A model generated the notes under the pieces. It ran no database searches. It was not told the origin of the DNA and saw only the letters and a list, made by a program, of their open reading frames with translations. Of a stretch of 64,000 nt of DNA, positions 1 to 51,449 are shown in pieces (within the stretch, counting starts at the first letter, position 1; every line of letters starts with the position of its first letter). The stretch spans positions 62,001 through 126,000 of the forward strand of contig ML978127.1 in NCBI GenBank assembly GCA_010015805.1, written 5' to 3'. Both the position numbers and the translations under genes were made by a program. Source of the stretch: Rhizodiscina lignyota. Lineage: Eukaryota.

Positions 1-1509
1 GCTGAAATCTCCTACCCAACCCACTTCAATATTCGCCCACTTCTGGAGAGAAGCCACGGGGTCGCTGGTCGCGCTGGCCTCCTTGGTCTCAGGGTAGTCG
101 TATCCCAACTTGGTATGATCTCGGACATCGTTTGACGTCCACCAAACCGTTTCGTCGCCGTTGAACGCTTTGCGGAACGGTGCCAAAGGCGTGCCCGGAG
201 TTTCGGGCTCATGTCTCGGCTCGACGTACGTCGATAAGGGAAAACCCAGACTATCCCACCACGCGACGTCGTCGCCCTTGGGGTTATTGATGCCTTGCCA
301 GATGGCCAGAATGCGGTCGATATTGCTAAGAAGATGTCAGTCCTCATGACAAGACAGGAAGATTCGGAGTAACTTGCGCATGGTGAAGCCAAAAGACTGG
401 ATCGAAGCTTTGGAGATTGTAAGCATTTTCTGGCGCTTTTTTGGGGGGGTCAGATTATCGACTTACCCAGCGACCTCCGGATAGGACATTTGGCCTGTAG
501 CACGGTCTTCACTCGTCCCCGGTCCCATTCCCATGTAGCCATGAATGTTATCGTGGAAGCCCTCAAGGCTGTTCACATTATAAATCCCTTTCCTTCGGTC
601 GTCGACTTCGAAATGGTTCGAAATGACCTTCCAGGGGTCTCCGCCAAAGAACAAATCGTACAGATACGCAGCATCCGAGCTCGACCGCTGCATGGTCGGG
701 CCATACTGATTGTTGAAGGTGTCCTTAACGTACTCGTGGTCAGCCGTCCCCGTGGGTTTATTGTAGCCTCGGATGGTCTTGGTGGACAGCACTTTGATAT
801 CTTTGGGCTGATAACCCTGGATCTGGTCCCAATGGAAGCCTCCCTTAGGGTCGTTAGGAAATTTGAACTGGTAGAGGGGATTGTTCATCGGTTCATAGTC
901 CGTCTTTCCAGGACGACGAACGTGGATCGTTTTCGTCATGAGGATGACTGGGATCCCGTACGTGTACTGCTCTTGGTCGACCAGCTTCTCACGGGGCAGC
1001 AAAGGGTCAAAATACGGGATACGGAATTTTGGCAGAACGGTATGCTCCTGGCCTAACGCTTTAGCAACCTCCGCCGCGTGTAAGTACAAGGCTTGCTACA
1101 TCAATCCCGTTAGTGTTCTGGTTTCGGAATCCAAAGCAATTCATACCTCGAATTGTGCAAGATAAACGCGGTGCCACGTGGGAAATAGGACGGAACCATG
1201 GGCACAGTAGCCTGCCCCACGTTTATTCGGTGGCTCCCCTGTTGGCGTGTATGGGACATTTTCGACTCCGTCCCAGGCCCGGTACGGCTGACCGTGGATT
1301 CCTGAAATTTCATAGTAGGAGAATGGCTGGGACGAGATGTCATCCTTCATGAAAGCTTCAAGAGCCAGGAAGTACAAGTTGGCTAGGTCGGCATCCGCCA
1401 AGAAATCATCGATCTCCAGGCGTAGCGCTTGGCTGCCATCTGTTGGAATCACACCAACAGTCAAACCGTTGTCTTGGGCAGCCTGTAGTGCGACCGTGTC
1501 AACAGACAT
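1..1509 (-). CDS. Tyrosinase (type-3 copper polyphenol oxidase); 3' end runs off the window
   Basis: Spliced exons 1509-1147, 1095-467, 407-378, 325-<1. CuA motifs IHG and YCAHGSVLFPTWHR; CuB motifs LEGFHDNIHG and [20 protein letters not shown] (the latter needs the GC-AG intron 377-326). No signal peptide. Confidence 0.93.
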
Positions 1510-3051
1510 CGTGAGGCTCTTTCTTCAAATAACTGACAACGAGACTGGACGCTTGACCGAAAGTTTGTGAAGATTTGGAAGTATCCTGAAAGAAAAAGGA
1601 CCGTTGTATCGAAGGAGTCAAGGATGTCTTATATGCTGATATCTTTTCAGCTCCCTCCTGCAGGAATTGCTCTTGTCCGATATCACATGTTCGGTGAACC
1701 GACACCTCCCTCAGGTTTTCCCACGACGTGTCCATCTTTCGACCAAACACTGCACGTCATATCCTGGAACGATTGCACGGAAAGTTTTAGATGTGGCGAG
1801 ACTTCTGGTTCAAAGTGACGACTCTCCCTACATTTCAGCCCTTCGTGCCCCGCAAGAAGCCTCGTGACAGCCAGTGGAGATGGGCCTATGTAGAGGGACG
1901 AGAAACAGAGGTAGGGCTGAAGAATGTGATTTTCATCCGTTCCAATCGTCTCCAGACACTTACCGCCGCCGCCAGGTGGACACCAGAATTGTCGTCGCCC
2001 AAAATCCCATATGAACTCTAACAAGAATACGGTAAAGGACTGCCTCCGACCTTTGTTCAGGTCAACAATCCCGTCCACGTATGTTGGCGGCCGCAATACG
2101 AGGAGGCGAATCAACAACGCAAAAGCGCGGGCTGAAAGCACTCTCGAGTCTAGACGCCTATCGAACAGTGTGACGGATGTCGTGTTTTGCGTGTTGCTGC
2201 ATACAAGCTGAGGGTGATCTGCTTTTCCACGCCAATGCTCGTCAAACTAAAGTACGCGAAGATGCGGGACATCCCGAAAACGCTTTGTCCAACTGATGTC
2301 CTGTTTCAGCTGCGGGGCCGCTGACCCTCCAAAATATTTTCCCGTCAATGCTATTCTACCATCACCATGTCTAATGCCTTGCATCCATTCTCTTTAGCGA
2401 ATGTCGTGAGTTTCGTTTTAGTCAAACTGTCAACAATGATCTACTTGGCGCCTTTTTTATTTCGTATTTCTGCCAGCGCTTTCGGTGCTTTATTTCATAG
2501 CCCGTGAGCCGTAACAAGTTCCCAGCTAGGCATGCAGAGCTTCCATCGTTGGAATGGAAACTGGGAAACTTATAAATACTGGTATTACAGCAAACGCCCA
2601 ATGTTTTCTCCTGGTTTGTCTGATCAAATCGTGCCTCGAAATGGAGCAAATTACTCATAAAAGAAAACCTTTTCGCATTGGGAGATCCCTTTTCAGCCTT
2701 CTCTTGTCTGCCGAGTTGCCTCGCTTAGAAAACAGCGAGTTAAAGAGGCCACTTTCAAGCCACCGACTGACTATCGAGTGTTCTCCTCCCAAGGCATGCA
2801 GGCTTATCACAACTTGATCATCAAATGCCGATCTCATTGTTCAGCTGAGCAGGGTTACTCTTTCTCGACATGCCTCTATGTCACGTAGACATCGCTCCGT
2901 GAGTTTAGGGGAGCAGATGGGTTTTTATTGCCTTCTGCTCCTTCTCCAGCCGGCCCCCTCATATTACTCTTGCTCTCTATCCATTCAAAAATTCCCAAGC
3001 AAATCACCGTACGTACCTCATCAGACCGATCTTACGCACCGACGGGTCGTC

Positions 3052-5236
3052 ATGAAGCTGGTTGAAAGGTTTTTGGCGGCTTTCACCCGTCTCTTGGAGT
3101 ACGTTACCCTGTCCCCCTATCATCATGAAGTGGCTCCTAGCTTCCAGCTCCCGCTGGCAGTTGACCACTACAACGATGTGATCGCTCTGCCGCCAGGCCC
3201 TATTTTCACGCCTCCGGGCTACGACACTTCGGACGACTTCCAATGCAACTACACTACTATGTTGGGCTGGACTCAATGCTGGACTCCCGGGAGTCATCTT
3301 GATTGCTGGCTAACCTCCCCGGATGGGCTGACAAACTTGAGCATTAATACTAATTATGAGAACGTGGAGAACACTCCCATCGGGGTTCACCGTTACTACG
3401 AGTACAATGTCACCGCCGGCGTCGTGGATGCAGACGGCCTCACCTTTCCCTATGGTAAACTCCTCAATGGGAGCTTTCCAGGCCCCTGGATCCGTGCCTG
3501 CTGGGGTGATACAGTTCATCTTAAAGTCAATGTTGACTCGGACTTTTACCAGGGCGTGTCAGTCCATGCGCACGGATTGAGACAATGGACCAAAATGCAC
3601 ATGGACGGAGTTCCCGGTATCACCCAATGCCCGATCGCTCCTGGAAGCAGTTTCGAGTACGTATGGCCCACAACCCAGTATGGCTCCTCTTGGTACCATT
3701 CTCACTACTCCCTCCAATACCCGGACGGACTACAGGGTCCTTTGGTAGGTCACGATACGTCCAAGGTATTTCGATGGATATCGAATAACTGACTTTAACT
3801 GTCCTTAAAACCAGACTATCCATGGACCAAGTAGCAAGGACTACGATTACGCCCCCGCGCTGCCATTGATTCTCACTGATTGGAGTAAGTGTCACGTTTT
3901 ATCTTTCACCTTACTGATCCATGAAGCTCATCGAAGTTCCTCCTTTCTCAGACCATAACTCCGCTTTCAACGAGTCGAGCTTATACCCCTGCATTCTATT
4001 GGGTGGAGTTGGAGACATTACGAAATGCCACCCTGGCACGACCAACGATACCGAAATAAAAGGCCCGCTTAGGCTCTCATTTCAAAGAGGCCAACGATAT
4101 CTGCTCCGCGTAATCAACACTTCTTATAGAGCCGGATTCACTTTTTCGATTGATAACCACGAGATGTGGATTGTCAGCGCCGACTTTGTCCCCATCACGC
4201 CGTACAATACCACCGCAATTAAGGTGAACATTGGCCAGAGATACAATATTGTCGTTGTAGCGAATCCTATCGACTCATCAGATGCGAATTTTTGGATACG
4301 AACCTACCAGTCACCCTGCGGATCAGTAGGCAGCCTGGGTCCTAACTACATGAACACTGGTATCATCAGCTACGACAATTCAACCGGACCCGATCCAACC
4401 TCCACCCAGTGGCCAAATGCACTGTCTAAAGAGTGTAAGGATGAGCCTCTATGCAGCATACAACCCATCGTTCCTTGGAACCCTCCTGGCCCGAGCAATT
4501 CCGATGTCCCGCGTGTCATCCTTTCAGGTAATCCACCACCTGACCTTCCCAACCTCTTTTATGCTATATACCCAAACAATTCCTATTTTCAACCACTCCA
4601 GATTCAGTGGGGGAATCCAACTTTTACCAGTCTCCAAAATATGACCTGGCAGAATTTATCTGTCATTGTACCGGAAGACTTTTCTGCAGATTTCAACAAT
4701 GTGACCTCCTTCACCTCAAAATGGGCAAGTTTTTCTCTTCCACTTTGTATCATCGTTGTATGCTTGGCTAAAATAACATGTTAGATTTATCTCAACATCC
4801 AATCCGACGGCAATCATCCAGTAAGTCAAAACAAACCAGATCAAATCAAATCAGCTCAGAACTGAGCACTCTCTCCCAGATTCATTTGCACGGCCATGAT
4901 TTTGCCATTTTCAACCTTACCTATTCCGATGGATCAGTTGAGCCTTGGGGTCCGTCCATTCCCCGACGCGATGTTTTCACAGTCCCTGGGGGAGGAAACG
5001 CCACAATTGCCTTCCCAGCAGACAATCCCGGTGCCTGGCTTTTGCACTGCCATATCGCCGATCACGCATCTTCAGGACTCGATCTGCAGGTCCTCGAAGA
5101 CCAGGTCGCGGCAAACAGCATTTGGCCCAAGGGTGACTCTCCTGCTCTTGCCACGGCGAGTAGCCTTTGTACCTCTTGGTCAAGTTGGTGTACAGCCCAT
5201 CCGACCGCGTGTGTTGAGACTGATTCCGGAGTCTGA
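3052..5236 (+). CDS. Laccase-like multicopper oxidase (AA1)
   Basis: Exons 3052-3744, 3815-3884, 3952-4724, 4785-4820, 4880-5236. Copper motifs HAHG, WYHSH, HPIHLHGH, HCHIADH..GL; C-terminal DSGV typical of ascomycete laccases. Confidence 0.93.
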
Positions 5237-46542: not shown

Positions 46543-47250
46543 ATGAGCAACGCGCCAGACGATCAAAAAGGTGCAAACCGACTCGGTCTTCTGCACCGTG
46601 ACGAGCTTCTCGAAGATGGGCAGCAGCTTCATGACCAAATAACGCAGCTCATGAATGCACACTACGATGACAGGTATGTTTCAGACACCCCAGCTCGAAA
46701 GCAAGCGCTGATCAGATCTTCCAGCGGAGTGACCACACAGCTCCCTGATGGGCGTTATATTGGTCCCCTGGCCATCATGCTGCGCACGCCGTCCATTGGC
46801 TCTGCCTTCTTCGGCCTCTCTGCCGCCATATCCCGTCTTGCTGCATCTGCGAAACTCACTCCACGCGTCCGAGACGTCGCCGTCAACACTGTCGTTGGAA
46901 ATGCTAAAGCAGCATACGCCGTCTATGCCCATGGTATACTTGGAAAGCGCGCTGGGCTTTCTGATGAAGAGCTGGACGCAATCTCAACGGGGCAGAGACC
47001 GAAGACGCTAGACGAGGCGGAGAGCGTAGCGTGGGAGATGGCAAGAGATCTTTGCGTACAGCCTGAAAGGGGAGCGTTACAGGATGAGCTATGGGACAGA
47101 GGAGTGAAGGTCTTAGGAGAAGAAGGAGCGATAGCGCTTGTTCATGAAGTGGCATTCTATCAGTACATCTCGACGGTGTTGAACGGGTTTGATGCGAGAC
47201 GGCCAGATGGGAAAAGATGGAATAGAGAGGAAGGAACATGGACACAATGA
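46543..47250 (+). CDS. Carboxymuconolactone decarboxylase / AhpD-like protein
   Basis: GPLAIMLRTPSIG, LTPRVRDVA, YAVYAH..GKRAGLSDEELDAI and LVHEVAFYQY motifs of the CMD fold. Confidence 0.78.
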   Translation: MSNAPDDQKGANRLGLLHRDELLEDGQQLHDQITQLMNAHYDDRYVSDTPARKQALIRSSSGVTTQLPDGRYIGPLAIMLRTPSIGSAFFGLSAAISRLAASAKLTPRVRDVAVNTVVGNAKAAYAVYAHGILGKRAGLSDEELDAISTGQRPKTLDEAESVAWEMARDLCVQPERGALQDELWDRGVKVLGEEGAIALVHEVAFYQYISTVLNGFDARRPDGKRWNREEGTWTQ

Positions 47251-47573
47251 ATCCGAGTGGAATGCAAGTAGCTCCCATTATCAGGTAGTGTATACCTCTT
47301 CTACAACATTTTACCGCTCGCACATCCGATTGAGGCTATTTCTTCGTTTGCTTGGTGTTTAGTGTGGCAGGGAAGACAAGCACGAGAATACCATGACAGC
47401 TGAATTTATGGCCCTCTCCAAGGCTCAATCGCGGCTCATTGATTTGAAGAGGAAGAAAGTTGAAAGAGAAGGGAAGGGGACTGGGAGAGTACGGCACTCT
47501 TGCTAGGCGCACCGCTCGGGCTCTCCCGCAGGGCTACGTGATTCACTAACAACATTCGTTGGACCCTAACACA

Positions 47574-47578
47574 TATAA
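47574..47578 (+). promoter_or_regulatory. TATA box of a putative Pol III ncRNA gene
   Basis: TATAA lies ~29 nt upstream of the predicted 5' hairpin at 47603, as in fungal U6 promoters. Confidence 0.55.
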
Positions 47579-47602
47579 GTAAAATAACTTTTACATACTA
47601 TC

Positions 47603-47801
47603 GCCTTCGGGCATCGTGGGGTAATCGGTACAGAGATTAAACTGAAAAGAACGGGTACGGTTAACGTGTTGCAGGGCGGTTCGATCCCCGAAGGGATCAA
47701 AATACTAACATTTAGGCGCTCAGTGACGGACAGCACCTTCTCGTGGTACTGGGTGTGAGTAGTCTTGAAAAAGATGAAACTAAGACTGTCCATTATTTTT
47801 T
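47603..47801 (+). ncRNA. Unidentified Pol III-type, intron-containing small RNA with an antisense element to U2 snRNA
   Basis: 5' hairpin GCC-TTCG-GGC; A-box-like TGGGGTAATCGG (47617-47628); CAGAGATTAAACTGAAAAGAAC (47631-47652); intron GTACGG..TACTAAC..TTTAG (47655-47715) containing B-box GGTTCGATCCC (47678-47688); T6 at 47796-47801. Confidence 0.75.
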
Positions 47802-47812
47802 GGCATTTTTTT
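47796..47812 (+). terminator. Pol III oligo-T terminators
   Basis: T6 (47796-47801) followed by T7 (47806-47812), directly after the structured RNA body. Confidence 0.65.
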
Positions 47813-49333
47813 AAAATGTTTATTTTATTTTTTGGGATCTGTAGGCCTTAAGCGGAAACCTACCTGCGTCTTGTATTTTTTTCACTGCACCTTTCTTTTT
47901 TTTTGACTTGAGAACATCAAAAGATATTACTGGAGTATATGTGTCACTCTCTATCTTACGACTCTAATCTATAACCTCTCGGACTCTCAATAGCTTGAGC
48001 TATTCTGTAGTGGAATTAGACTGGGGAAGCTTCGTTGAGCGCTGACCCATAGCGGGATCCTCTACAGAAGTTCATCATTTCAGTCTACCATCAGTGGCCA
48101 GAATAATTGGTTAATGTCATCGGTTCTACTAATATTGTACTTGAATAATCTATAACTGTGCCCCAAATACTATTATATACATGCCAGAGATGAGACGCTT
48201 TCAACTGCGGCGGTGAAGCCGATCATTTTACAGGATGCGCAACCACTGAACGAAATGAGATAGTTTCGGCATTCGAGGAGCGCATTAGCTACAGCAATTC
48301 CTATATTGGTCCCTGTGCCTTATGAGGTCTACTCAAAAGGGTGGATCGAGCATTTGACCCTTTTACTGCCGCCGTTGCAAGCTGCGAAACGCGAGTCGAG
48401 CAGCGCCGCCTTATTGGCCGCACGCACAATGAACGTCGAACAAAGAAAGGCGTTCGCACAGGCCTCTCCTGGCTTGCGCCAACCACGAGCCTGTTAAATG
48501 CCCGGTCGGACGTCGTACCTGCGCTAGCACCCGCCGTCTTACCCTCAAACTGCCGCCAAGCAGGCCAACCTGAGACGCTCCGAGCTTGAGAGGGCCACCC
48601 GCTTCTTCCTCTCCTTCACCACCACACTGCATGCTGCCGTGCAACAGGCGAGCTTGACTGGAGGTCGCCGCGCGCCCATTGTCGCCGTCTTTGTCGCGAA
48701 GTTTGATTTGATGCAAGCCTGCCTCGTGCGCTTTATTGTCCCTCCTTTCAACACCCCCACGGCGAGACGCTCAATATCGGGTACTTCCAAATCCCAACTA
48801 TAGCCCCCCTGCCGCCCATTGTCAGACGAAGAGACGCGCCAGCTGCCACCTTACAACGGCGCTTCTACAACTCTTCAACTTCGAACGGCGCAACATTCTT
48901 TTCCTTCGTTGAAACGGGATCGCTCGGCCGCACACGACGCGGAGACAGGAGCAGCGCGCAGAGCGGGCTAGAACGACATTCATTTGTAGCACCACCTCGA
49001 GCGCTTGATGCGGATCGAACCAAACCCATTTCAAGCTGCTGACGAACAAGCGGAAAGCAGCATACACTCCCTTTACGATCTTCTACCTGCTTTACACTCT
49101 GTGTCGCAATAAGCAAACATTGGCAGGGTATATACCGCTTCACTCGACAGCCGGACTGATCTGAAACGAGGCACTTCACCGTCACCCGAACCCTATTGCA
49201 AACACAACTTATGCTTGCAGTTATTTCCGGTATAGCTGGCCTAATAACTGCTTCACACTCGTTGCGCTCATTCCAATCTCACCGCAATTCTCCACCACTA
49301 TCACAAAGCGACAAGCAGGAGCGATAAGACACC

Positions 49334-51449
49334 ATGGGTTGCTGTGGAGGAGACAGAGAAAAGGGCCCAGTGTCTGAAGAGCAGAAGTGGGACTACATTG
49401 TGAGTTGCATCTCTTTACGAGAACTGCATAGCAACTGACCTGTGGATTTTAGACGCTGGACGACTTCAAATCCAAAGGCTGCTTAACGCCCTTCTCATAC
49501 GCTTGGTTGTGGATACTCATAATCATCGCCATTGGAGTCTACGCCGCCGACACTTTCACCGCCATACAATTGCTGGCTTTCAATCGATGGAGTTCCGAGG
49601 TCCAACCAGCGATTCCGTTCTCGGTCTCAAAGTGGATCTTCGCCGTTTGCATCATAATCTCGGTTGTCCTCCTGGCATATGAGTCTCTGCGAGCACTACG
49701 GGTAGTGCAAAGAGGCGGCGTGGCCGACAGCTATCTGGATCCCATAGCAGTGATATGGCAGAGCATTAGGCCTGGATCTGGAAGGGGCTGGAGGAGATTT
49801 CTGGTGTTCGCGGAGCTGACAAAGAGCAAGAAGGGCGTAGACTACACGGCGTTGTTCGTCTACTTTCAGTTCAAAGGTATGCCTCATCCGAAAACTTCCG
49901 GTCGAGATTAGAAGCTCACAGTGTATGGACAGGAGCCCTTCGCATTGTTCTTGCCGAAGGCCCCCGCCAAGTCATAAACGGAATAACATTATACTCGGTT
50001 TTTCGCCTTAATCTGCTACCTGATGGGAAGAATGCTCCGACAGACGGTCACAGCGGCATCCAGCAGTTCTGGCAGAATCTTGAGGTTCTTGCCGACAAAG
50101 ACAAGAAGCAAGCCGTCATTCTCGCTTCCATGTTGTTCACACTCGTTATCTGGGTTATTACGGCCATCCTGCTTTTGATCGCGATCGTTCTGTATATACT
50201 GTTTCTTTGGCACTACATCCCCAGCGCTGACGGGTCGCTGACGAGGTATTGCCGAAGGAAGATTGACAGCAGGTTGGATAGCATTGTCAGCAAGAAGACA
50301 AGGAAGGCGCTCGAGAAGCAGGAAGCCAAGAGAAGAAAGGAAGAAAGAAAGGCAATGAAGAACGGCGAGACTTTCGCCAAACCTACACTTCCTGACCTGG
50401 ACGACGACAAGGACTCGTTCATCTCTCGCACAGAGACGATGTCCTCTAAGCCTACTCTTGCTCGCACCGATACTTCTTTCACCAATGCCTCTACGCCTAC
50501 AATTCCGCAGATGACCCGACAGCCGACCCTGCCAGACGTTTCGGGTCGTCCGGCGCCCTCGAGATCGGCCACGGGCTCTTCGTATGCCTCAAACGCGCCC
50601 CTTCTGACTAATACGGGAGGAATGGGTTACTCTGATGAACCCGTCCCTACACTTCCGACGCCAATATCTGCCGCCTCTGAGCGTGACTACTTCTCATCGC
50701 CCTCGGACTATCACCCTGGCCCCCCAAGTCGTTCCTTGACGGGCTCAACACAACGTTCCTACGGTCCTCCCTCTGGGACTCCTGGACCGTACGGCCCTAA
50801 CGGCCCAATCACTCGTCCGCCTACCGCACAGTCTCGCCGTGGGCCAACGCCTGGCCCTCCGGCGCTGCAGCGAGTCCAGACTAGTGAGACGATGAACAGT
50901 AACTTCTCTCGTCGCGCGCCTGGTACAGGCCCCGTGACTCCTATCTCACCGTTCAACGATCCGCGAGACAGTCCACCGGAATATTTCGGCCCAAGCTACG
51001 AGATGAGTCCAGTGCGCACATCGCCTCCAGGTGGTACGCCAATGGGCGCCGTATATGACTATCAGCGTCCACCTACTCGTACTGGCCCGAGTCCCGCACC
51101 ATCATTTGCATCCGCTCCAGGATCTCGGCCACCACCGCGTTCCATACCCGAACGCTCAGGTACAGCTCCACCCCGCCCTTCAGCCACTCCGGCGCCGGCA
51201 AACGGAGGATATGTCGCCTTCAATCCGAACATGCATGCTCCGGCCGCGCCACCCAGCAGCGGAACGCCTGCACCACCTCCGATCAGGAACTTTTCGTCGC
51301 CGGTCCATGCAGCACCCAGAGCGAACACGGCCCAAGACTTTGAAGCCCCGACGAGGAGTTTTACGAGTCCGGTGATGCCACGGTTGCCGGAGGGTCCGAC
51401 CGGTAGGAGTGGTACAGCGCCTGGTGGATATGGTGGGGCTGAGTGGTGA
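49334..51449 (+). CDS. Kch1/Prm6-like fungal potassium transporter family protein
   Basis: EQKWDYI|TLDDFK, YAADTFTAIQLLAFNRWSS, WRRFLVFAELTKSKKG, LAEGPRQVIN, YCRRKIDSRL; long Pro-rich tail; two introns. Confidence 0.8.

Follow-up and report, generated by a model that had tools for sequence, protein, structure and literature searches.

In S. pombe, the U6 gene is transcribed by Pol III and has a TATA box, an A block and, inside an mRNA-type intron, a B block (Frendewey 1990 in Didychuk et al. 2018, PMC5855946, as related in the accessible part of that article). Pieces of U2 snRNA have been described in repetitive DNA: the accessible part of Kojima 2015 (PMC4494074) presents SINEU, SINEs reported only from crocodilians, with heads derived from U1 or U2 snRNA, and that of Kojima and Jurka 2015 (PMC4640811) presents Utopia and Keno, non-LTR retrotransposons that target U2 genes and leave U2 fragments starting from nucleotide 39, and does not report them for fungi. 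In Dothideomycetes, introner-like elements form repeated units with complete spliceosomal intron signals (Collemare et al. 2015, PMC4457414).

Here we examined a locus in a 64-kb stretch of contig ML978127.1 of Rhizodiscina lignyota (64,000 nucleotides in total, hereafter the window) that shares traits with each of these systems. Its surroundings are non-coding, with a CMD-like ORF on one side and a KCH gene on the other; a Pfam search of nine ORFs between 46.5 and 51.5 kb returned nothing for seven and only KCH for two. The plus strand of the locus carries a 22-mer, CAGAGATTAAACTGAAAAGAAC, directly followed by GGGTAC. The 22-mer is the exact reverse complement of fungal U2 snRNA over the 5' strand of stem-loop IIa, the loop and half of the 3' strand. 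An exact-match scan of metagenome contigs recovered at least 117 loci with the same 22-mer. Among the matches listed, GTATCT stood directly 5' of it (in U2-sense orientation) in 114 of 117; of the three others of these at least 117 loci, one reads GTACCT and two are interrupted at the GTATCT site. Rfam identified U2 at 19 of 20 loci sampled among the matches listed, with 69.9 to 160.4 bits. In the window, the 22-mer occurs a single time even when up to three mismatches are allowed, and none of 100 shuffles contained it. Since one given 22-mer is expected by chance about 4e-6 times in 35 Mb, the match is explained by shared ancestry with U2, not by chance. The first-pass annotation, which had called the 22-mer antisense to U2 and had given the U2 sequence correctly, was thus borne out in that observation, and its preference for something other than a decayed copy of the whole of U2 also fits the data.

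The latter point follows from the extent of the homology. In inverted orientation, the piece covers the last 3 bases of the branch-binding box, UCU and most of stem-loop IIa. An nhmmer search with a profile built from 34 intron-less U2 genes, gave a sole match, on the minus strand (47658-47607, 20.2 bits), with high posterior only at profile positions 36-63 and a low-confidence part that ran on to profile position 84. When 47540-47850 was compared by blastn with the at least 117 loci, all but one of the 120 alignments fell on the U2-like piece, mostly at 47631-47658 and in a few cases extending to 47623; the lone exception covered 19 nt at 47601-47619 (locus L077, E = 0.31). The Rfam U2 model (RF00004) had no match in the window at its gathering threshold (46 bits) and none at E ≤ 10 in searches of 1.4 kb or 226 nt. 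Homology does not run along most of U2 (stem I, GUAGUA box, stems IIa/IIb, Sm site, stems III/IV). Confident U2 homology is limited to 28 nt, and the locus is therefore not a decayed full U2 gene.

A minus-strand remnant, that is, a decayed U2 copy or a U2-derived repeat in U2 sense to which all plus-strand features would be irrelevant, is highly unlikely for the same reason, even though the only profile match is on that strand. Such a remnant would agree with the weak continuation of this match as far as profile position 84 and with a hairpin that follows the 22-mer about where stem IIb would be, and U2 pseudo-fragments are known elsewhere, such as the isolated fragment at metagenome locus L076. 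However, confident homology ends on both sides of the 28 nt; the 5' half of the branch box, stem I, the Sm site and stems III/IV are missing, with the Rfam U2 model silent at E ≤ 10 on 226 nt; and the approximately 155 nt of repeat that would lie upstream of U2 position 36 contain nothing U2-like. Moreover, uniform decay would hardly leave 22 nt unchanged, place two changes in the 6 nt next to them and erase all similarity farther out. A minus-strand U2 exon between introns was also rejected: by eye, no AG precedes the piece, and the sole candidate behind it, GTACCG, is poor.

The 28 nt are embedded in a repeat of about 240 bp (Table 1). Evidence on copy number came from one DNA sequencing run (X1), of which 28 contigs aligned to the locus. 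Their summed depth was 166.5 to the left of 47570 and 151.5 to the right of 47812, compared with 660 to 3210 inside the repeat. Contigs ended loosely before 47573 (four contigs), behind 47801 (three) and behind 47812 (four), and contigs from the unique flanks stopped at 47625 and 47775. On the right, the repeat ends sharply at 47801/47812, and past 47812 the flanks are unrelated. The repeat is multi-copy. Its identical core includes both the U2-like piece and the intron-like segment, whereas two contigs over the TATA region showed 5 differences in 53 to 54 nt. By bin, the summed depth was about 1840 (47597-47623), about 864 (47624-47650), 660 (47651-47704) and 1845 to 3210 (47705-47812), values that double-count where unitigs overlap and are not copy numbers. 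Four other copies share about 72% agreement in the stretch before 47573, in which the window copy departs from them, so the window copy may be a truncated piece of something longer.

Table 1. Features of the repeat and of its U2-like piece, with positions counted from the first letter of the window
Feature	Positions	Strand	Basis
Repeat, ~240 bp	47573..47812	+	Contig depth and loose ends in DNA run X1
Identical core, 146-nt unitig	47597..47742	+	Depth 648.9, ~4x single-copy, 0 other letters
TATA-like box TATAAGTA	47574..47581	+	By sequence; 23-26 nt upstream of the identical core start; putative promoter
5' hairpin GCC-UUCG-GGC	47603..47612	+	Predicted folds and sequence
GGTAC direct repeat, left copy	47627..47631	+	Sequence; contigs stop at 47625/47626
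U2-complementary 22-mer	47631..47652	+	Exact match to fungal U2 (stem-loop IIa region)
GGGTAC extension	47653..47658	+	Pairs with U2 GUAUCU via two G.U; overlaps right GGTAC copy (47654-47658)
Putative 61-nt spliceosomal-type intron, GTACGG...TACTAAC...TAG	47655..47715	+	Motif configuration
B box, exact consensus match GGTTCGATCCC	47678..47688	+	Pattern scan; inside putative intron
Hairpin GATCCC-CGAA-GGGATC	47683..47698	+	Predicted folds
Downstream module ("exon 2")	47716..47795	+	Highest summed depth of the repeat; two hairpins predicted
T6 (47796-47801) and T7 (47806-47812), Pol III terminator-like	47796..47812	+	T-run scan; sharp 3' edge of the repeat

No second copy of the repeat was found within the 64-kb window, and the repeat matched no Rfam family (gathering thresholds on the whole window and E ≤ 10 on 1.4 kb and 226 nt, with chance-level matches only and nothing for U2, U6, any further snRNA, snoRNAs or tRNA-like RNAs). 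A 22-mer from exon 2 had no occurrence in prokaryotic genome contigs or viral contigs, and no orthologue of the locus was present among the listed metagenome matches to the U2 22-mer. No target-site duplication was found around the whole element, the only common word of at least 6 nt being TAAAAT. At the 3' end, the sequence is rich in T instead of A, and SINE-like mobility is thus hypothetical. Just outside the left boundary, a telomerase-template-like string was seen near 47560-47571.

On its plus strand, the repeat resembles a small unit of Pol III type. The B box agrees exactly with the Pol III B-box consensus GGTTCGANNCC; it is the sole match on both strands of the 64 kb, with 0.43 matches expected per window and at least one match in 37 of 100 shuffles. 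A diverged paralogue keeps a B-box-like GTTCGACCC (loose end at 47703). The GT of the putative intron (47655-47656) falls within the 6-nt extension, its TACTAAC lies at 47703-47709 and its AG at 47714-47715; when the 1-kb spacer was simulated, 7 of 300 runs contained one or more intron-like configurations of this kind. At a paralogue loose end at 47713, the upstream sequence differs, while CTAAC and TAG are kept at the same junction. One paralogue, read over 30 letters, has two compensatory pair changes and one broken pair in the hairpin at 47683-47698. A weak alternative 5' splice site, GTACAG, is present at 47628 in the left GGTAC copy. Given the independent TATA box, exact B box, T-runs at the 3' edge and intron-like segment, all on the plus strand, a plus-strand RNA is plausible.

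At the sequence level, the motifs of a putative U6-like gene layout (TATA at about -30, B block, T-run terminator and spliceosomal intron) are there. As far as the accessible description of the S. pombe U6 gene goes, the two have in common an upstream TATA box, a B box in a short intron, a 5' hairpin of UUCG type and a terminal T-run. They differ in that the repeat, known here from its sequence, has no Rfam U6 match and no convincing A block; the only candidate is a loose D-loop-like pattern at 47617-47628. The locus was also rejected as U6 itself: the string ACAGAGA at 47630-47636 arises where GGTAC meets the U2 complement, and neither U6 nor U6atac was found by Rfam at E ≤ 10.

The Pol III-like and intron-like motifs could also be chance features of a non-transcribed DNA repeat, such as a transposon fragment or a segmentally duplicated spacer, with a captured U2 fragment. 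This reading, which we regard as unlikely, is in line with the frequency of the B-box pattern in shuffled sequence, with the lack of an Rfam family or tRNA-likeness, with the possible truncation at 47573 and with the predicted fold of the window copy (47585-47815), which is no more stable than that of shuffles (z = 0.15), but it sits poorly with the arrangement of the motifs. Several independent signals (TATA box, B box, TACTAAC intron, terminal T-runs) share one orientation and fit within 240 bp, the 3' boundary of the family falls exactly at the T-runs, and the branch/3' splice motif and the B-box-like motif are kept in paralogues despite differing surroundings. Neither a terminal inverted repeat at the family boundaries nor a target-site duplication speaks for such a transposon fragment; the best pair of inverted repeats of the kind that delimit a MITE (47581-96 and 47816-31) falls outside the 3' boundary of the family.

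A tRNA or a tRNA-derived SINE head was considered and rejected. ARAGORN found nothing in the window at its default setting and, with introns allowed, nothing at 100 to 80% of its threshold; a match appeared only at 75%, where 300 shuffles gave 290 matches. Of the traits of a tRNA-derived SINE, the internal B box is present, and a tRNA-like head, a target-site duplication and an A-rich or LINE-like 3' tail are absent.

We calculated the pairing of the element with U2 from metagenome locus L007, which stood in for the U2 of R. lignyota and in which stem IIa folds as UUUCAG/loop/CUGAAA. With RNAduplex, the 22-mer alone gave 22 bp at -32.3 kcal/mol, and inclusion of GGGTAC gave 28 bp with two G.U pairs at -42.4 kcal/mol, versus a mean of -14.0 and a best value of -23.2 kcal/mol for 500 shuffles of the 28-mer. 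Any RNA from copies that bear the U2 piece would, according to this model, be able to form the 28-bp duplex with U2. The claim of the first-pass annotation that GGGTAC pairs with U2 GUAUCU through wobbles therefore held. Its claim that pairing reaches the branch-binding GUAGUA held for the last 3 nt of that box and not for the box as a whole, the remainder of the paired region being UCU and stem-loop IIa. It had also placed a 5' splice site inside the extension, where the GT of the intron-like segment indeed lies, and had concluded that splicing would change the pairing and might allow self-regulation. With splicing at 47654|47716, the energy of the predicted duplex moved by only about 1 kcal/mol, to -46.8 from -47.8 kcal/mol, and so self-regulation by splicing has no energetic support. 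The argument that wobble-compatible differences favor selected pairing proved weak as well: both differences are transitions, the commonest kind of change, and a real U2 (L104) already reads GTACCT. A classical modification guide is unlikely, given that no C box (RUGAUGA) occurs on either strand of 47573-47812 and that no snoRNA or scaRNA of Rfam was matched. The repeat shares antisense complementarity to U2 with box C/D and H/ACA guides (scaRNA/snoRNA); its lone CTGA (47642), the D-box motif, lies inside the duplex and does not flank it, and a duplex of 22 to 28 bp exceeds the usual length of guide duplexes.

The pairing could nevertheless be what the repeat is for. Plus-strand transcripts of about 204 nt unspliced, or about 143 nt after splicing at the same sites, would then form a family of functional U2-antisense small RNAs whose 28-nt element pairs with U2 nucleotides ~36 to 63, opening stem-loop IIa and masking half of the branch-binding box, and which would sequester or chaperone the U2 snRNP. 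Alternatively, such transcripts would recruit U2 to the element's own intron and aid splicing of the Pol III transcript. The strength of the duplex relative to the best shuffle, the G.U compatibility of both departures from identity on the plus strand, and the promoter, terminator and intron signals on that strand agree with this proposal. So do the predicted accessibility of the 28 nt (unpaired probability 0.57, versus 0.44 in the rest of the RNA) and the combination of about four identical cores with differing TATA regions, a pattern typical of multi-copy RNA genes. We still consider a functional family of this kind improbable. The piece is apparently present in only part of the repeat family and has an insertion-like bracket, the wobble pairs and the shift on splicing carry little weight for the reasons given above, and box C/D motifs and an Rfam match are lacking. 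Furthermore, because four copies are identical throughout the core, the perfect match of the 22 nt says nothing on selection there. The more specific proposal of an intron-bearing Pol III RNA family, in which a subfamily with the 28-nt anti-U2 element titrates or remodels the U2 snRNP or pulls U2 to its own intron, appears quite doubtful. A selected U2-binding role is, on these predictions, possible but unsupported. Of the findings that the first-pass annotation had named as refuting its reading, none came up in the analysis.

Our preferred reading, held tentatively, is that a genuine piece of U2 was captured, in inverted orientation, by a dispersed low-copy repeat of about 240 bp with a Pol III-type layout, and that the pairing is a by-product and not a selected function. 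In this Dothideomycete, Pol III would transcribe the plus strand of the repeat, which carries the TATA box some 25 nt upstream of the conserved core, the exact B box and the T6/T7 runs at the 3' edge. A short, presumably spliced, spliceosomal-type intron would interrupt this unit and contain its B box, an arrangement known from the S. pombe U6 gene. Most likely, the U2 piece was inserted at or next to the 5' splice site of the element, and it would then have spread with one subfamily of about four copies that share the identical 146-nt core, and its complementarity to U2 would have arisen through capture without selection. Spread with one subfamily is suggested by the GGTAC bracket and by the piece seemingly missing from some copies. 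A GGTAC bracket arose in 668 of 20,000 trials with shuffled flanks, and contigs stop at 47625/47626, the point at which the bracket begins; being insertion-like, the bracket offers a second possible origin for the GGGTAC extension. The U2 piece seems to be present only in a subset of copies. As the sequences of the other copies are known by 30-letter loose ends alone, both this subset and the insertion are read from the depth bins, and a contig stop lies at 47626, versus the 47631/2 expected for a clean insertion of the bracketed 27 nt. The identity over 22 of 22 nt and the pairing compatibility of both adjacent differences would also be expected under selection for pairing.

Capture of a U2 fragment has counterparts among the described elements. 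Like SINEU, in which U2 pieces were probably acquired by template switching or capture (accessible part of PMC4494074), the fungal repeat is short, dispersed and U2-bearing. According to the same part of that source, the U2 portion of SINEU is in sense orientation, forms the 5' head and is much longer, and oligo-T stretches inside it argue against Pol III; in the fungal repeat, the U2 piece is 22 to 28 nt long, internal and antisense to the putative transcript, and a LINE-like tail and target-site duplication are absent. As with the fragments left by Utopia and Keno in the accessible account, the fungal U2 piece begins at about nucleotide 36 to 42 and lies beside repeat DNA, but the junction bases differ (CCC versus TCT) and the piece does not reach the end of U2. 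A Utopia or Keno remnant was rejected, with no reverse transcriptase or endonuclease ORF nearby (only KCH by Pfam) and a U2 piece that stops after 22 nt. Introner-like elements occur in the same fungal class and are likewise repeated and equipped with intron signals. They differ from the approximately 240-bp, low-copy repeat, whose window copy lies outside identified protein-coding genes and whose intron-like part is the least repeated. The low depth of this segment (about 660, versus about 150 to 166 in the flanks) and the extension of the repeat well past it led us to reject an introner-like element, in which the repeat unit equals the intron and many near-identical copies lie inside genes.

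The locus would be the first example we have found of an inverted U2 piece inside a small dispersed fungal repeat; the literature (main texts) otherwise gave only the crocodilian SINEU and Utopia/Keno, and for fungi it describes, as far as we found, neither a U2-antisense RNA nor a repeat with U2 sequence. If the piece is a captured fragment only, it is a modest curiosity that would add to the evidence of snRNA sequences being shuffled into fungal repeats, in fungi with unusually intron-rich snRNA genes. Should the plus strand give rise to an RNA that does bind U2, a core snRNA of the spliceosome would have a naturally occurring antisense partner that regulates or recruits it. We know no other case of such an RNA, and it would provide a handle on the dynamics of U2 stem IIa in vivo. 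With its TATA box, B box in an intron, T-run, multiple copies and lack of an Rfam match, the 240-bp unit is a candidate for a new Dothideomycete family of Pol III small RNAs or mobile elements, and as such is of interest independently of U2.

The 22-mer CAGAGATTAAACTGAAAAGAAC at positions 47631-47652 (+), adjoined by GGGTAC at 47653-47658, had been described in the first-pass annotation as complementary to U2 snRNA. To check the U2 sequence assumed there against real genes, metagenome contigs were scanned for exact matches to the 22-mer, and at least 117 loci (L001 to L117) carried it. Among the matches listed, GTATCT lies immediately 5' of the 22-mer (in U2 sense) in 114 of 117 loci, while L104 has GTACCT and L006 and L034 are interrupted at that spot. 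On the 3' side, AAAC, AAAT or AAAG follows in 113 of the 117 listed loci, and beyond it come a stem IIb hairpin and a stretch resembling an Sm site. Of 20 sampled loci, 19 were identified as U2 by Rfam (69.9 to 160.4 bits). The assumed U2 sequence was thus correct. The counterpart of the 22-mer in the fungal U2 of L007 folds as stem-loop IIa, running from the 5' strand through the loop to halfway along the 3' strand. In the window, the 22-mer occurs once even at up to three mismatches, and none of 100 shuffles matched. By chance, any one 22-mer would turn up about 4e-6 times in 35 Mb, so the match reflects homology. The reverse complement of the 22-mer is a highly conserved stretch of fungal U2.

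Many fungal U2 genes among these loci are broken by spliceosomal-type introns at varied positions. The 5' part is uninterrupted in 56 of the 109 listed loci with sufficient 5' flank and interrupted in 35, which show a branch-like CTRAY motif immediately upstream; the remaining 18 are of another kind, several also intron-like. Intron sites lie within the GUAGUA box (L006, L034) or directly after stem IIa (L056, L071, L083), and intron-interrupted genes are still scored as U2 by Rfam (e.g., L009, 105.6 bits over 267 nt). L104:259-451 is a U2 gene (135.8 bits) with a variant branch-binding region, where GCGTAGTACCT replaces GTGTAGTATCT. L076, the sole sampled locus without an Rfam U2 call, harbors at 560-660 an isolated U2 fragment of ~42 nt, GTGCAGTATCT + 22-mer + AAACTGCTC, within purine-rich DNA.

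A profile of 34 U2 genes lacking introns was searched through the whole 64 kb and matched one site, 47658-47607 (-), with 20.2 bits; high posterior support was confined to profile positions 36 to 63, i.e., the 28 nt of 22-mer plus extension, and the second-best match in the window had an E value of 8.9. Comparison of 47540-47850 with the 117 listed loci by blastn yielded 120 alignments. All except one fall on the U2-like piece, where 101 cover 47631-47658 and a few extend to 47623. The exception is a 19-nt alignment of 47601-47619 with L077 (E = 0.31). Rfam showed no match to U2, U6 or another family at gathering threshold, and relaxing the cutoff to E ≤ 10 gave none either, down to a search space of 226 nt. 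With profile support limited to the 28 nt, blastn confined to the piece and no Rfam U2 match, a decayed full-length U2 copy was rejected, and a minus-strand U2 remnant seems very improbable. On these comparisons, the stretch is a short U2-derived piece.

The predicted duplex of the 22-mer with real U2 has 22 bp (-32.3 kcal/mol) and grows with the six extra bases to 28 bp including two G·U pairs (-42.4 kcal/mol), compared to a mean of -14.0 and a best of -23.2 kcal/mol for 500 shuffles of the 28-mer. Pairing can extend via G·U wobbles as proposed; of the GUAGUA box, the extension takes in only the final three bases. The wobbles had been taken to favor selected pairing, a weak argument because both differences are transitions and one is present in a real U2 gene (L104). 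Transitions are the commonest kind of change. Splicing at 47654|47716, proposed to alter the pairing, shifts the predicted duplex (with context) only from -47.8 to -46.8 kcal/mol, and a suggested role as a classical modification guide is unlikely, box C being missing from either strand of the element.

The piece lies in a multi-copy element of ~240 bp (47573-47812, +), located in non-coding DNA between an ORF at 46543-47247 (+) and a KCH potassium-channel gene beginning at ~49.45 kb. The ORF shows 93% identity to a hypothetical protein of Rhizodiscina lignyota (Dothideomycetes, order Aulographales) annotated as carboxymuconolactone-decarboxylase-like. The interval from the repeat to KCH (48300-49400) is GC-rich (0.55 to 0.61), its longest ORF on both strands is at most 137 aa, and five ORFs tested there (48.3 to 49.3 kb) gave no Pfam match; it may represent a long UTR or a promoter, a gene rich in introns, or a non-coding RNA. 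At 48042-48083 (-), some 230 nt past the 3' edge of the repeat, there is a weak box C/D-like match with an ATGATGA motif (Rfam sn2429, E = 1.4, 18.6 bits where the gathering score is 50), probably by chance.

Contigs of one DNA sequencing run (X1) were placed on 47300-48100 at ≥80% likeness, which yielded 28 contigs, 16 of them placed only in part. Depth was 166.5 in the left and 151.5 in the right flank, and summed depth within 47570-47812 was 660 to 3,210; contigs of the unique flanks end at 47625 and begin at 47775. A 146-nt unitig (47597-47742), spanning the 22-mer and an intron-like segment, had a depth of 648.9 without a single difference, pointing to some four copies that are identical over this core. 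Loose ends mark family edges at 47573 (4 contigs), 47801 (3 contigs) and 47812 (4 contigs), and beyond 47812 the sequence is unrelated. Summed depth, which is not copy number and counts overlapping unitigs twice in bins near junctions, was ~864 at the U2-like piece, ~660 over the next 54 nt and higher at the end modules (1,840 at 47597-47623; 1,845 to 3,210 at 47705-47812). We read this as two end modules common to more copies than the middle, the copies being known from depth and loose ends. Neither a second copy within the 64-kb window nor a target-site duplication around the element was found.

Plus-strand features of the repeated element
Feature	Position	Strand	Remark
TATA-like box	47574-47581	+	23-26 nt upstream of identical-core start
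Hairpin GCC-UUCG-GGC	47603-47612	+	
Pol III B-box consensus match	47678-47688	+	sole match in 64 kb
Intron-like segment GTACGG ... TACTAAC ... TAG	47655-47715	+	
T6 and T7 runs	exactly at family's 3' edge	+	

As ~0.43 B-box matches are expected over the entire window, one inside these 240 bp is unlikely; of 300 simulations of the 1-kb spacer, 7 contained one or more such intron-like configurations. Two diverged paralogues were each glimpsed in the loose end of a single contig. One is unrelated upstream of 47713 and yet retains, at this very junction, CTAAC shortly ahead of TAG. The second retains GTTCGACCC and a hairpin which, read by eye, departs from 47683-47698 at three pairs, two of them changed in a compensatory way and one broken. 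These glimpses hint at kept intron and B-box motifs. Given its motifs, a plus-strand transcript of the element is plausible, and it could pair with U2. A selected U2-binding RNA would draw on such a transcript and on the moderate accessibility of the 28 nt (predicted unpaired probability of 0.57 versus 0.44 overall), and we consider it unlikely. An inert repeat carrying these motifs by chance appears similarly doubtful. Complementarity of 13 nt (92%) between 47604-47616, in the 5' hairpin region, and 47682-47694, with the hairpin beside the B box, could close a large domain of the unspliced RNA. Just past the 3' edge, a terminator-like motif, TTATTTTTTGG(C/G)AT, is locally duplicated (47793-47806 and 47825-47838, spacing 32 nt).

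ARAGORN, with introns allowed, found no tRNA down to 80% of threshold; a match appears only at 75%, where 300 shuffles yield 290 matches, leaving a tRNA-like SINE head unsupported. The predicted fold of the element is no more stable than those of shuffles. In the S. pombe U6 gene, the B block is described inside a spliceosomal intron (Didychuk et al. 2018, PMC5855946), the layout that the B-box match and the putative intron here would share. U6 identity was rejected, with no Rfam U6 match and ACAGAGA at 47630-47636 being a product of the junction with the U2 complement. SINEU is described from crocodilians only, with U1/U2 pieces in sense orientation at the head (Kojima 2015, PMC4494074), and differs from the element in these respects. 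Utopia and Keno are reported to leave U2 from nucleotide 39 onward adjoining a retrotransposon (Kojima and Jurka 2015, PMC4640811), whereas the element has no RT ORF and its U2 piece stops after 22 nt. Introner-like elements are described as introns inside genes in hundreds of copies (Collemare et al. 2015, PMC4457414), whereas in this element no segment is repeated less than the intron-like one. A literature search of main texts found neither a fungal U2-antisense RNA nor a fungal U2-bearing repeat.

A direct repeat, GGTAC, brackets the U2-like piece (47627-47631 and 47654-47658); comparable brackets arose in 668 of 20,000 shuffled-flank trials. Because the right copy provides most of the six-base extension, two explanations of the extension compete: it may derive from U2 and have undergone two transitions, or it may be a target duplication or a microhomology resembling U2 by accident. 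Two changes in six bases beside 22 unchanged ones could equally speak against a U2 origin of the six. The X1 contigs break at 47625/47626, near the left copy and coinciding with GTACAG (47628), a possible alternative 5' splice site, though a weaker one. Ancestral exon 1 may have ended near 47627, with the U2 piece inserted at the old 5' splice site. The break is consistent with such an insertion, which we infer rather than observe because a clean 27-nt insertion predicts a break at 47631/2. An isolated U2 fragment is also known from another locus, L076. Our best explanation, held tentatively, is that a fragment of U2 was captured within a low-copy repeat that bears an intron and is probably of Pol III type.
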